Source: an uncultured delta proteobacterium (GTDB lineage Bacteria; Desulfobacterota; Binatia; UBA9968). From it: DNA of 64,000 nucleotides. The position numbers and the translations under genes are program-made. Below, piece after piece: positions 1 to 3,003 of the stretch (positions are counted from its first letter, which is position 1; every line of letters starts with the position of its first letter). The DNA lies in contig CAVWLW010000027.1 of assembly GCA_963755715.1 (NCBI GenBank), positions 192,001-256,000 on the forward strand. The letters are read 5' to 3'. A model generated the notes under the pieces. That model ran no database searches. It saw nothing but the letters and a program-made list of their open reading frames with translations, and was not told the origin of the DNA.

Positions 1-297
1 GAATTCACACTGGCCGCAGCCGGTCAGCGGATAGAGACAGACCGGATCACCGACTTTGACATTCGCGACTTTCGCCCCGACTTCTACGACCACGCCGGCG
101 CCATCCGCACCGAGAATGTGCGGCATCGGCACGACAATGCCGGTTGCGCCCATGCGGTTCCAGATATCGATATGATTGATCGCCGCCGCTTTCAGCTTGA
201 CGATCACGTCATCGGGCTCAATTAATCTTGGCTCGTCCGCCTCTTCGTAGAAGAGTTGCTCCACGCCGCCGTAACCGTGCATGCGAACTGCCTTCAA
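1..297 (-). CDS. Zinc-binding (medium-chain) alcohol dehydrogenase/oxidoreductase, N-terminal part; runs off the window edge
   Basis: Manual translation from TTG at 297: MKAVRMHGYGGVEQLFYEEADEP...VIVKLKAAAINHIDIW...PHILGADGAGVVVEVG...VGDPV...GCGQCEF, an ADH_N GroES-like domain with the start of the structural Zn loop; AGGAG RBS upstream. Not in the ORF track. Confidence 0.9.
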   Translation of the reverse strand, partial: MKAVRMHGYGGVEQLFYEEADEPRLIEPDDVIVKLKAAAINHIDIWNRMGATGIVVPMPHILGADGAGVVVEVGAKVANVKVGDPVCLYPLTGCGQCEF

Positions 298-454
298 GAA
301 ATTTCTCCTGCTTCGACAGACAACTCGGTAACAAGAGAAATTTTTGAAGTCAAACCGGCGTGCACGGCAAAGGAGTCTCTTCACACCGAACGGCGCTTGA
401 ATTCGAACTACAGAACGCGCGGCTCTGTTTCGAAAATAAATGTAAGTTTAGCTT

Positions 455-575
455 TAGGGTAGGGTGTCCCCTTAGCGGGGACACCCCGGGGTGATAGCGT
501 CAAACATGAACCGAGGAGGGGAGTCCATGCTCACGCTCGGGAACTTGTTTTGCCGGTGCAATCCGGCAAGTCGAA
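455..575 (-). ncRNA. Candidate 3'-UTR-derived small RNA with an anti-Shine-Dalgarno loop (UCCCCUCCUCG)
   Basis: On the minus strand AGCGU-GAGCAUGGAC[UCCCCUCCUCG]GUUCAUGUUU-G-ACGCU (537-496) forms a ~15-bp stem whose G-U pairs work only in this orientation; flanked by hairpins at 550-569 and 462-486. Confidence 0.5.
462..486 (-). terminator. Strong GC-rich hairpin, probable 3' end of the zinc-finger/sRNA transcript
   Basis: Perfect 10-bp inverted repeat GGGTGTCCCC-ttagc-GGGGACACCC; no immediate U-tract, so terminator function is uncertain. Confidence 0.5.
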
Positions 576-583
576 AAAAACAT

Positions 584-784
584 TTACCTCATTCGATTCA
601 TAGCGAACTGAAGCTTCTTAAGCTCACTCTGCAGAAACAGATCCTTTAACTCATGACGATCCATATGCGCTTCGAGCAACTCTGTGGGAAACATTCTCGC
701 ACCACAGCGATTGCAGACCGCCGCGCGAAAGGTTTCCTTTTCAAACTGGATGTCGTGCGAATCGGTGCTGTTTAATGATTCCAT
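584..784 (-). CDS. 66-aa small protein with a C2H2-type zinc-finger motif
   Basis: C-NR-C-GARMFPTELLEA-H-MDR-H = C-x2-C-x12-H-x3-H; purine-rich RBS (AAAGAGGGA) upstream of ATG; dedicated sigma54 promoter. Confidence 0.8.
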   Translation of the reverse strand: MESLNSTDSHDIQFEKETFRAAVCNRCGARMFPTELLEAHMDRHELKDLFLQSELKKLQFAMNRMR

Positions 785-826
785 TTGTCCCTCTTTATTC
801 GATTACTTGCAGACGATGCAGGCTAG

Positions 827-843
827 AGCAATTGATATGCCAG
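827..843 (-). promoter_or_regulatory. Sigma54 (RpoN) -24/-12 promoter
   Basis: Minus strand CTGGCAT-ATCAA-TTGCT matches YTGGCAC-N5-TTGCW with exact spacing; predicted +1 near 816, about 30 nt before the ATG at 784. Confidence 0.8.
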
Positions 844-868
844 TTCGGAAGGCGCTGAAAGGATCGGC

Positions 869-881
869 CAACATATTGATA
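869..881 (-). promoter_or_regulatory. IHF binding site
   Basis: Minus strand TATCAA-TATG-TTG is a perfect WATCAA-N4-TTR, lying between the sigma54 promoter and the upstream palindrome. Confidence 0.7.
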
Positions 882-950
882 TCTCGTAGAATCGGCTTGA
901 CAATGGCAAGTGGACAAACAAGTTTCCGCACAAAGTCCGATCGTGGCGGT

Positions 951-965
951 TGTCAATCGTTGACA
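951..965. promoter_or_regulatory. Palindromic upstream activator sequence (probable enhancer-binding-protein site)
   Basis: TGTCAA-TCG-TTGACA perfect dyad about 140 bp upstream of the predicted sigma54 start site. Confidence 0.55.
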
Positions 966-1287
966 TTTTTGTGCTCCGATCGATCAGGATCTACCCATGA
1001 CGGCTTCAAGGCTTGACTCGATCGCGGGTGCCAATTTTTTGGCGGACAAAGCATTGGAGTCGCATATAGGGCCTATCCGCAGATCGGCAAAGTAAGATCG
1101 TACTCGACCGTGGCAATGCGGTGGCGGCGCGCGACCGTGAGATCACTAAAGAGACGCGCGAAAGGACGCGCTGGCAACGGCATCGGCTTTAGTCCGAGGC
1201 GCAAGGCGCGCCCTTACACGGACAAGAAATCACCGCCCGGAAAATGCAGCAGCGTATTAGGAGCTGCGTGAAAGCGCTGTAAAAAAT

Positions 1288-3003
1288 TCAAACTTGGCGC
1301 AAGATCGCCATGCCGTGACCGGCGAGAGAGATGCGAACCGCGCGACGATTGCCGCAAGTTTCCACGCTAAGCCGCGTTTTGGGGTCGAGTAAGTTGGTCA
1401 GCTTGGCGCCATCTTTATTGAGATTGGCGTCCACCGTCACGTAGTCGGTTCGAGGAACCGCTTCGAGATTGAGCGCGATCAGCACTTCGGTATCGTCGAG
1501 GATTCTCGAGTATGCCAGGGTGCATCGACCATCGAGCGGAAAGCCGAAGTCGATGCCATTGCCGGAAATCTCTCGAAAATATTGGCGACCGTAGCGTAGC
1601 GCCGGTTCGTTTCGGCGCACCGCGGCGATTTGCGCGATGCTTTTATAGATCGGATTTCCCGGTTTGAAAAAGTGGCGCTGCCGACTGTCGAAAGCGCCCC
1701 ACTCGCCGCCGAACATGCACTCCCGCACATAGCTGTCATTATCGCCGCCGCCGTCGAACCCCTGCTCCGTGCCGTAATAGATGCACGGCACTCCCTGGCT
1801 CGTCAGCAAATAACCGATCGTCTGCGCCGCTTGTGGTGGAAACGGATTGGCGTGCATGAACCGCCTATAGGGGCGCGCCATCTGGTCGTGGTTATCGACG
1901 AACGTAACGAAATATTGGCCGGCTTCGCCGTGGTCGGCGTACTCGGTCTTAAAGCGCTCGTAACGCGCGCGCAACTCCGCCGGATTCAAAAAACCTTTGA
2001 GGGTTTCCTCTAAAATAAAATACAGGGGAAAATCCAGCGCAGCGTCGAGCGAGGGAAAACGTTCGTTGGTCCCTTCGATTCGGCTGTTGCGGCCGAGGTA
2101 ATGCTGCAGCGTTTGATCGTCGGCGACGATCTCGCCAAAAATAAAAAAATTGTGCTTGCCGATGCGCCGGGCGTACTCGCGAACTGCGTTGCAAAAGATC
2201 GCCGTCGCACTCGATTCCATATGCTTGACCGTATCCAAACGAAAGCCGTCGATGTCGGCGGCAGCGATCCAGTACTTGTAGACCTTGATCAGCCCGTCCA
2301 ACACGTCGGCGCGCCGGATATCGAGCTCTTTCAAGCTCAAAAAATCGCCGTTGATCGCCTCTTCGGGATCGCTCCAGTTGCGGATCTGGCCGCGCCGCTT
2401 GTAACTCTCCGGCCGCTGCAGCTCGATCGGCCAAACCGCGTCGTCTTCTTGCAGGTTCGGTGCTGCCTCGTTTTCGCGCCAGAAACCGAAATCGAAGGGA
2501 GCGCTTGATTGATTAGAATAGAAGTATGGAAAATCGCCGGGATAGGCCCAATTGTCGCCGGTGTGGTTCAAGATGATATCGAGGATCACATACATGTCGC
2601 GCGCGTGGGCTTCGCTGACGAGTTTCTGTAAATCTTCTTTGGTGCCGAAGCGCGGATCGACTTCAAGAAAGTTTTGGATGCCGTAGCCGTGGTAGCTGTC
2701 GGCTTTTTCCCGGCGATTTTTCAATATCGGGCTGAGCCAGATCGCGTTGGCGCCCAATCCTTTAATATAATTTAGCCGGCGCATGATTCCTTTGAGATTA
2801 CCGCCTTGAAAGATTTTTCCTTGCGCCGGATCTCGGCCTTGCGGCCCCGATGCGACATAGGGCCGCAGACCCTTGCTGTTATTATCAAAGCGGTCCACGA
2901 GTAAAAAATAAACAAATACATCGCGCCAATCGGCTGGAGACGAAAAGACATCATCTTGCGGAGTAAAATCCAACTGCTGAACGGATCGAAGCGGCTCGGC
3001 CAT
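1288..3003 (-). CDS. Alpha-amylase family (GH13) glycoside hydrolase, cytoplasmic
   Basis: GH13 conserved regions DIILNH, DGFRLDTVKH, GE, FVDNHD, GVPCIYYGTEQ; no signal peptide. Confidence 0.92.
   Translation of the reverse strand: MAEPLRSVQQLDFTPQDDVFSSPADWRDVFVYFLLVDRFDNNSKGLRPYVASGPQGRDPAQGKIFQGGNLKGIMRRLNYIKGLGANAIWLSPILKNRREKADSYHGYGIQNFLEVDPRFGTKEDLQKLVSEAHARDMYVILDIILNHTGDNWAYPGDFPYFYSNQSSAPFDFGFWRENEAAPNLQEDDAVWPIELQRPESYKRRGQIRNWSDPEEAINGDFLSLKELDIRRADVLDGLIKVYKYWIAAADIDGFRLDTVKHMESSATAIFCNAVREYARRIGKHNFFIFGEIVADDQTLQHYLGRNSRIEGTNERFPSLDAALDFPLYFILEETLKGFLNPAELRARYERFKTEYADHGEAGQYFVTFVDNHDQMARPYRRFMHANPFPPQAAQTIGYLLTSQGVPCIYYGTEQGFDGGGDNDSYVRECMFGGEWGAFDSRQRHFFKPGNPIYKSIAQIAAVRRNEPALRYGRQYFREISGNGIDFGFPLDGRCTLAYSRILDDTEVLIALNLEAVPRTDYVTVDANLNKDGAKLTNLLDPKTRLSVETCGNRRAVRISLAGHGMAILRQV

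Follow-up and report, generated by a model that had tools for sequence, protein, structure and literature searches.

A putative sigma-54-dependent cassette of uncultured Binatia links a C2H2 zinc-finger microprotein gene to a C-rich three-hairpin RNA

What is made from about 520 bp of DNA in which an activator-type site, a promoter, the gene of a 66-aa protein and a series of hairpins follow one another on a single strand: a small protein, a regulatory RNA, or both? The question is raised by positions 455-972 of a 64,000-nt window (the whole stretch of DNA that was analysed; positions 192,001 to 256,000 of contig CAVWLW010000027.1, assembly GCA_963755715.1) from an uncultured member of the Binatia. 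To our knowledge this phylum, also called Binatota, is known only from metagenomes. From its upstream activator-type site (UAS) to its 3' end the cassette presents, in minus-strand order, the UAS, an IHF-like site, the promoter, the open reading frame (ORF) and the hairpins. On balance we regard it as a self-contained, enhancer-dependent unit of uncultured soil Binatia that probably has two outputs. The initial annotation of the sequence had placed six minus-strand features here (an upstream dyad, an IHF site, a sigma-54 promoter, a C2H2 protein, an anti-Shine-Dalgarno (anti-SD) stem-loop and a strong closing hairpin), and all six are present when the sequence is read. The closing hairpin, given as 462-486, was found within one base, at 487..461. 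The annotated 3' anatomy was right for these two hairpins and had missed a third, at 569..550.

The ORF is a protein-coding gene. Among 28 orthologues, differences at codon positions 1, 2 and 3 numbered 3503, 2141 and 10759, and 8061 synonymous differences stood against 4685 nonsynonymous ones; this excess of third-position and synonymous changes shows that the ORF is under purifying selection as a protein. The product consists of a variable N-terminus, a finger at residues 24-44 with hydrophobic residues (M31 and L37) at its core positions, and a long helix at residues 35-65. An alignment of 32 members shows no variation at C27 and H40 and conservation of 90% or more at C24 and H44; the conserved parts of the protein are the finger, a Pro at residue 33 and a C-terminal ELKKLQ..M.RMR. 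Judged by this pattern, the protein probably carries a classical C2H2-type finger that would hold zinc. No model of Pfam or NCBIfam rose above its cut-off for the microprotein, and those of NCBIfam did not even come close. With zf_UBZ the window protein reached E = 0.049 (13.7 bits, cut-off 25.6), and of the 32 members nine matched zf_UBZ (best E 0.0012) and five zf-C2H2 (best E 0.0054), all below cut-off. Names such as "ribosomal protein S27AE/L34E", which some homologues bear, look spurious, as no model above cut-off backs them.

The fold was predicted with AlphaFold2 from the 32 sequences (predicted local distance difference test, pLDDT, 75.5). The model has short strands at residues 11-31, followed by the helix at 35-65, and its finger fits locally at 0.8 A on WRNIP1 UBZ, ZBTB7A, ZBTB20 and Fzf1, with Foldseek E-values all at or above 2.2; in the PDB, Foldseek returned nothing at E <= 0.001. 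Among PDB sequences, the best match in a profile search was HKR3 C2H2 (E = 0.015). The prediction of a homodimer from two copies (alignment A2) scored 0.00, which is evidence neither way. A separate observation concerns P0084, a protein of 378 aa in which C-x2-C-x12-H-x3-H (CEQCGT.FTSEELLQAHLDTH) is repeated five times in tandem. Its match to the microprotein finger, at E = 2.2e-5, shows, at the level of sequence, a bacterial finger close to the classical repeated type.

The family is narrow in distribution. A collection of 5.8 billion proteins contained 50 homologues, and a search of 1.84 billion representatives gave only 48 clusters at E <= 0.001. According to the protein atlas and to named records, the homologues come from "Candidatus Binatia/Binatota" and from metagenome-assembled genomes labelled deltaproteobacteria. 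Within the taxonomic order of the window, 60 of 123 genomes had a match (58 of 121 when the unpublished genomes G074 and G055 are excluded), all of them in one family: 59 of 89 in f1, 0 of 5 in f2 and 0 of 28 in f3. Most genomes with a match have two or three paralogues. A scan of contigs with a narrower protein alignment recovered the same lineage only.

Upstream of the gene, the GG and GC elements of the promoter lie exactly 10 nt apart, in agreement with TGGCAC-N5-TTGCW. The pattern TGGCAY-N5-TTGCW has its single match in the window at this place (0.10 expected; at least one match in 10 of 100 shuffles), and transcription is predicted to start near 816. Within the UAS, the dyad TGTCAA-CGA-TTGACA (965..951, minus strand) has no second match in the window, even when one mismatch is allowed (0.07 expected; at least one in 7 of 100 shuffles). 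The IHF-like consensus WATCAANNNNTTR is unremarkable by itself: the window has four matches where 1.52 are expected, and 6 of 100 shuffles have four or more. Such single-window statistics are modest, and it is conservation in the relatives that raises these motifs above chance.

The initial annotation had proposed to look for joint conservation of these elements at homologous loci. By a relaxed pattern the -24/-12 element was kept at 56 of 56 homologous loci in three paralogue groups, and by the strict pattern at 44 of 56 (two unpublished loci omitted; in each locus the element lies 60-200 nt before the first Cys codon). Relaxed and strict counts were 28/28 and 22/28 in group 1, to which the window gene belongs, 19/19 and 17/19 in group 2, 8/8 and 4/8 in distant members of group 1, and 1/1 and 1/1 in group 3, of which a single locus was read. 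The other two sites keep fixed offsets. The UAS motif ACAAAWHTGT-N9/10-RCA (type ACAAAAATGT-N9-ACA) occurs at -126 to -132 from TGGCA in 19 of 28 orthologous loci; WATYAA-N4-TTR occurs at -39/-40 in 12 of 28, and its core TYAA-N4-TTR takes this position in 18 of 28. Very little variation is seen in the ribosome-binding region GACAGAGAGGGACAA, and AGGGACA follows TGGCA by 48-54 nt in 28 of 28 loci.

The genome to which the window belongs (7.4 Mb) encodes the sigma factor and the kind of activators that an enhancer-dependent promoter would need: rpoN (Sigma54_DBD 213.3 bits, contig C34) and 36 Sigma54_activat matches, of which 31 reach E <= 1.3e-59. It also has three genes of the HU/IHF family, the best of which scores 102.6 bits, under the himA cut-off of 120.25. 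Strict promoter matches number 59 in this genome and UAS-motif matches nine, and the two coincide at this locus only. The combination of UAS and strict promoter thus disclosed no further regulon member of the putative activator in the window's own genome, nor a clue to the signal. The UAS may well bind an activator, and the upstream repeats are not the same everywhere. Group-2 loci have other repeats, of the TGTCAC/TGACA type. In the more distant orthologues L030-L033, paired palindromes of the TTGTACAA type replace or join the upstream site and the IHF-like site is unrecognisable; neither the -24/-12 element nor the ribosome-binding region has changed. As these repeats differ, the paralogues may be served by different activators.

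Downstream of the stop codon lies a structured RNA. Positions 586..448 (139 nt) have a folding energy of -54.8 kcal/mol, compared with -36.2 (sd 3.62) for shuffled sequences (z = -5.14; 0 of 200 as low). The 3' regions of 28 orthologues align over about 136 positions, and over the 29 pairs of the three helices 95.2% of the cells are standard pairs. The initial annotation had also named covariation as a check, and changes on both sides were found in 11 pairs; shuffles gave 5.2 +/- 1.0, none of 500 reaching 11, and slid controls gave 3-9. The helices differ in how they vary: helix 1 is paired in 86.2% and changed on both sides in three of six pairs, helix 2 is paired in 96.0% and so changed in six of 13 pairs, and helix 3 is paired in 99.3%, with four of ten pairs that never vary. 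Helix 2 has many G-U pairs in which the G is on the 5' arm. Read from the opposite strand these would become A-C mismatches, and the RNA therefore runs in the direction of the ORF.

Four unpaired stretches are conserved in this RNA: the linker UGUUCCCGAG, the loop of hairpin 2 (consensus CUCCUCCUC among relatives), CCCC before helix 3, and the UUCCCCC tail with its A-run. We use "anti-SD" to describe the loop sequence; the corresponding activity is putative. A search of window positions 1-1600 against Rfam returned no match at E up to 10. A covariance model (R1) found one full-length copy in 38 of 90 genomes of family f1 (37 of 88 without the unpublished ones), and by coordinates every copy abuts the stop codon of a group-1 zinc-finger gene. 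Hairpin 3 occurs once in the own genome. Independently of this, we observed that GGGACA is common to the near-invariant ribosome-binding region (AGAGGGACAA, window 788-793) and the 3' arm of hairpin 3 (GGGGACACC), and the 5' arm of hairpin 3 (UGUCCC) is for this reason complementary to the ribosome-binding region. The shared hexamer could be chance, a cis switch or a common protein-recognition element.

ORF and tail also occur together in RNA libraries. The stretch is partly present in 10 RNA-labelled soil runs, and coverage was examined for four soil RNA libraries, one from each of four studies. Each library contributed one short contig (452-789, 491-787, 435-801 (X7) and 488-801; X4 reaches 452). 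All four lie inside the predicted transcript and span the stop codon, hairpin 1 and hairpin 2, and two of them stop at 801, some 15 nt short of the predicted start. Positions 200-434 and 802-1300 are uncovered by the four contigs and were not used as evidence for transcript ends. The transcript over the ORF and the 3' structure that the initial annotation had suggested looking for is thus represented in these libraries, by contigs that do not give the strand. The features of the cassette and its paralogues are collected in Table 1.

Table 1. Coordinates of the cassette, its paralogues and the neighbouring ORF remnant (positions in the window unless a genome and contig are given)
Feature	Position	Strand	Remarks
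Upstream activator-type site (UAS), ACAAAAATGT-CAACGATTG-ACA	972..951	-	130 nt upstream of TGGCA
IHF-like site, TATCAATATGTTG	881..869	-	perfect fit to WATCAANNNNTTR; 39 nt upstream of TGGCA
Sigma-54 promoter, TGGCAT-ATCAA-TTGCT (TGGCATATCAATTGCT)	842..827	-	GG 841-840, GC 829-828
5' untranslated region (UTR), including GAGGGA at 793..788	785..816	-	5' limit putative
C2H2 zinc-finger microprotein gene, 66 aa	784..584	-	C24-x2-C27-x12-H40-x3-H44
Hairpin 1, UUGCCGG-loop-CCGGCAA	569..550	-	fold and alignment
Unpaired linker (G)UGUUCCCGAG, first C-rich single-stranded stretch	549..538	-	alignment A1, fold
Hairpin 2, long stem, loop CCCCUCCUC at 521..513	537..496	-	fold
Hairpin 3, GGGGUGUCCCC-loop-GGGGACACCCC	487..461	-	sequence almost invariant in relatives
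Pyrimidine-rich tail, UUCCCCC and A-run in most relatives; probable 3' end region	460..432	-	alignment
Group-2 paralogue L003	G000:C32:57486-57662		TGGCAT-GTCAC-TTGCT upstream
Third paralogue L004	G000:C9:40944-41045		49-54 aa, no long helix, promoter kept
ECH_2 remnant, 32-codon ORF (MTASRLDSIAGANFLADKA...)	997..1095	+	context, outside the module

The paralogues carry the strongest argument that the exposed C-rich stretches matter. The own genome has two more zinc-finger paralogues, each behind its own TGGCAT-N5-TTGCT. The group-2 paralogue L003 and 13 orthologues are followed by a different 3' RNA of two hairpins, in which eight of 17 pairs are changed on both sides and the unpaired parts are an CUCCUCCCC linker, a CCCCC loop and an UCCCCUCCC tail. 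Two paralogues with C-rich tails of unrelated architecture argue for selection on the exposed C-rich stretches themselves and not merely on a terminator. The third paralogue, L004, is followed by a 54-codon ORF.

The reading that we favour, with somewhat more confidence than doubt, is that a single enhancer-dependent transcript encodes the microprotein and also acts, whole or processed, as an anti-SD base-pairing RNA. An activator encoded elsewhere would bind the UAS, whose centre lies some 120 nt upstream of the -24 element, and a bend at the IHF-like site (at about -39 from TGGCA) would bring it to the sigma-54 RNA polymerase on TGGCAT-N5-TTGCT. Beginning near the predicted start, the transcript would measure about 370-385 nt and give rise to two products, the 66-aa single-finger C2H2 protein with its long C-terminal helix and a 3' region of about 140 nt with three hairpins. 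The C-rich stretches (UUCCC linker, CCUCCUC loop, CCCC and UUCCCCC tail) would pair with G-rich Shine-Dalgarno regions and repress other mRNAs, either while still part of the whole transcript or once cleaved by RNase E/G, which is present in the own genome. The microprotein might, as a guess, be a partner or modulator of the same response. Hfq (PF17209) was found in none of the 90 genomes of family f1, 31 of which are at least 90% complete. The idea that GC-rich seeds may not need Hfq derives from RoxS/RsaE. The lack of a detectable Hfq may fit such seeds and may leave room for a private protein partner.

Several observations weigh against this reading. A target, a processed species and an effect in trans are what we infer from the arrangement, and the anti-SD seed is too generic to name targets, as complements of the GAGGAGG type are too common. 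Assembled contigs give neither strand, ends, abundance nor processing. No activator gene is linked to the cassette: the window holds none, and the nearest Sigma54_activat match on the contig is more than 100 kb off. A free-standing copy of R1 was found in 0 of the 90 family genomes, and a purely cis-acting element would look alike. A group-1 gene at E <= 1e-16 was found in 47 genomes. One of these loci is cut by a contig edge, and among the 46 assessable orthologues eight (genera g8, g10, g11 and g13) are without R1. At these eight loci the promoter is kept and is followed by other hairpins, some of them plain terminators; among those that were read, a C-rich loop is present in L102 only. L031-L033 are without CCUCC in the loop of hairpin 2 and have C-rich hairpin 3 loops instead. 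Finally, the sequence of hairpin 3 is conserved far past the needs of pairing, which a base-pairing model leaves unexplained. The initial annotation had held that homologues lacking either the stem-loop or the promoter would speak against its interpretation. Its anatomy has stood and the promoter is kept at all 56 loci, and the eight orthologues without this RNA depart from it.

Among the alternatives, the one that survives best, possible although rather unlikely in our estimate, is that the 3' region works in cis only. Hairpin 3 would then be a terminator and hairpins 1 and 2 would block 3' exonucleases or tune the translation of their own message, with C-rich loops that are incidental or pair with the transcript's own ribosome-binding site. 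An RNA that is always attached to its gene and present once per genome suits such a role, as do the plain U-run that replaces the pyrimidine tail after hairpin 3 in some relatives (L010, L035) and the ordinary hairpin-plus-U terminators of the distant orthologues L101 and L102. The complementarity of UGUCCC in the 5' arm of hairpin 3 to GGGACA of the ribosome-binding region points the same way; however, a crude RNA.duplexfold comparison of 5' UTR and 3' region at 28 loci, with 100 UTR shuffles each, gave a mean z of +0.16. This crude test did not single out the UGUCCC/GGGACA pairing, and self-sequestration of the ribosome-binding site, whose duplex was no better than that of shuffled UTRs, is unsupported. 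Moreover, a terminator or stabiliser needs no conservation of loop sequence across genera, and the unrelated group-2 RNA, again with three exposed C-rich stretches, would be left unexplained.

It is improbable, in our view, that the 3' RNA is mainly a protein-binding element, that is, a ligand of the zinc finger in a ribonucleoprotein or autoregulatory loop, or a decoy, rather than a base-pairing regulator. Across 28 species with proteins of 50-90% identity the stem of hairpin 3 hardly varies, unlike the freely covarying stems of hairpin 2, and two paralogue groups inherit protein and RNA together. In group 2 the protein core is strongly basic (mean net charge +6.4, with an RHRRRQRW stretch), but in group 1 it is near neutral (+1.2). 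In addition, the helix positions that we take to be those of nucleic-acid contact, by Zif268 numbering, are here P, E, L and A. The analogue CcaF1 does bind RNA (PMC8034643). As for mere coincidence of motifs around an ORF that is not a gene, the IHF-like match (four against 1.52 expected) and a promoter present in 10 of 100 shuffles would allow it in this window, but promoter, spacing, ORF and RNA structure are kept across 56 loci and RNA-library contigs cover the region, and we regard it as extremely improbable.

Returning to the dual-output transcript, a further step can be imagined, which we consider speculative and doubtful: the microprotein might be the dedicated RNA partner of the co-transcribed C-rich RNA in a lineage without detectable Hfq, acting on its maturation, stability or pairing. 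The protein would then recognise hairpin 3, or the GGGACA shared with the ribosome-binding region. If this were true, a classical C2H2 finger, the hallmark nucleic-acid reader of eukaryotes, would have been recruited in bacteria as a private chaperone of a small RNA (sRNA), and the combination of small protein and anti-SD sRNA would have arisen independently at least twice, as DUF1127-CcsR in Alphaproteobacteria and as the Binatia module in two paralogous versions.

The neighbourhood of the cassette gives a hint of its setting. Beyond the UAS lies a gene of the GH13 alpha-amylase family (3003..1288), and on the other side a zinc-type alcohol dehydrogenase/quinone oxidoreductase-like gene starts at 282; at 15 of 28 loci the cassette is followed, in the same orientation, by the dehydrogenase-like gene. 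At 17 of 28 related loci an intact, divergent ECH_2 enoyl-CoA hydratase ORF of 377-402 aa is found at the place of the short ORF at 997..1095, its start about 40-60 nt past the UAS; the copy in L009 scores 370.2 bits against ECH_2. The ORF of the window is the decayed start of this divergent gene, the remainder of which is gone. By their annotation, these neighbours hint at a tie to acyl-CoA or redox metabolism. Upstream of the dehydrogenase-like gene the window, like many relatives, also has a conserved element, TTGACTTCAAA..TTTC.CCTTGTTA(A/C)C, at about 322-352 on the minus strand. This is a candidate promoter or operator of the dehydrogenase/quinone-oxidoreductase-like gene. Many of the dehydrogenase-like genes seem to begin with TTG behind a GGAG-type site.

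How does this cassette relate to what is known? The literature search, whose coverage did not extend to supplementary files or subscription journals, found no account of the protein, of its RNA or of any riboregulator from Binatia. The protein family and the RNA family are both uncatalogued, while the theme of a small protein with a 3' regulatory RNA is already known elsewhere. What the cassette offers is a regulatory module of Binatia that is compact, seems to be expressed, combines these two families and is small enough to be studied outside its native host.

With respect to the protein, classical C2H2 and UBZ fingers share the C-x2-C-x12-H-x3-H spacing and the hydrophobic residues at two core positions; the Binatia protein differs from them as a single finger with a 31-residue helix, 66 aa in all, for which no model rises above cut-off. 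The bacterial Ros/MucR finger has a different spacing and a larger size, and ROS_MUCR was not among the Pfam matches of the window protein at E up to 1. A review of the subject is PMC9779718. With respect to the RNA, RoxS/RsaE of Firmicutes is likewise a short RNA of several hairpins with several unpaired C-rich stretches, thought to pair with G-rich ribosome-binding sites, and its layout is shared in particular by the group-2 RNA with its linker, loop and tail. RoxS/RsaE is a free-standing gene and not the 3' end of an mRNA, and its promoter type and phylum differ from those of the Binatia RNA.

Sigma-54-dependent mRNAs that yield sRNAs from their 3' UTR have been described, namely those of GlnZ, from glnA (PMC9731577), and of the RpoN-dependent flagellar 3' UTR sRNA in Campylobacter jejuni (PMC11187230). 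As in the Binatia cassette, where release is putative, an enhancer-dependent promoter gives a protein and a regulatory 3'-end RNA; the parents there are large known enzymes or flagellar proteins, whereas the Binatia parent is a microprotein outside the catalogued families, followed by anti-SD-like seeds.

The closest system in its working mode is ccaF1-CcsR1-4 of Rhodobacter sphaeroides, which consists of a DUF1127 small protein of 71 aa and "cuckoo" sRNAs (PMC8034643). There too the gene of a small protein is followed in the same transcript by hairpins with anti-SD loops of the CCUCCUCCC type, each of the two systems is driven by an alternative sigma factor, and the arrangement is conserved within one lineage. 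The two differ in the promoter, which is RpoHI/HII there and sigma-54 with an enhancer in Binatia, and in the RNA, with four repeated two-hairpin units there and one composite RNA of three hairpins here; moreover, binding of protein to RNA and processing by RNase E were demonstrated there (PMC8034643) and are putative in Binatia, whose lineage is without detectable Hfq. DUF1127 did not match the window protein at E up to 1, and neither cuckoo/ar14-type nor RsaE families of Rfam matched at E up to 10 over window positions 1-1600. The view of the initial annotation that the cassette is analogous but unrelated to CcaF1-CcsR is borne out in so far as the architecture fits and Pfam and Rfam give no homology: the origin is unrelated, and the Binatia cassette resembles that system without being a member of its family. 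If its RNA acts in trans, the cassette would represent a second independent origin of a small protein and an anti-SD sRNA on one transcript, a design placed here under the tight on/off control of an enhancer-binding protein in bacteria without detectable Hfq.

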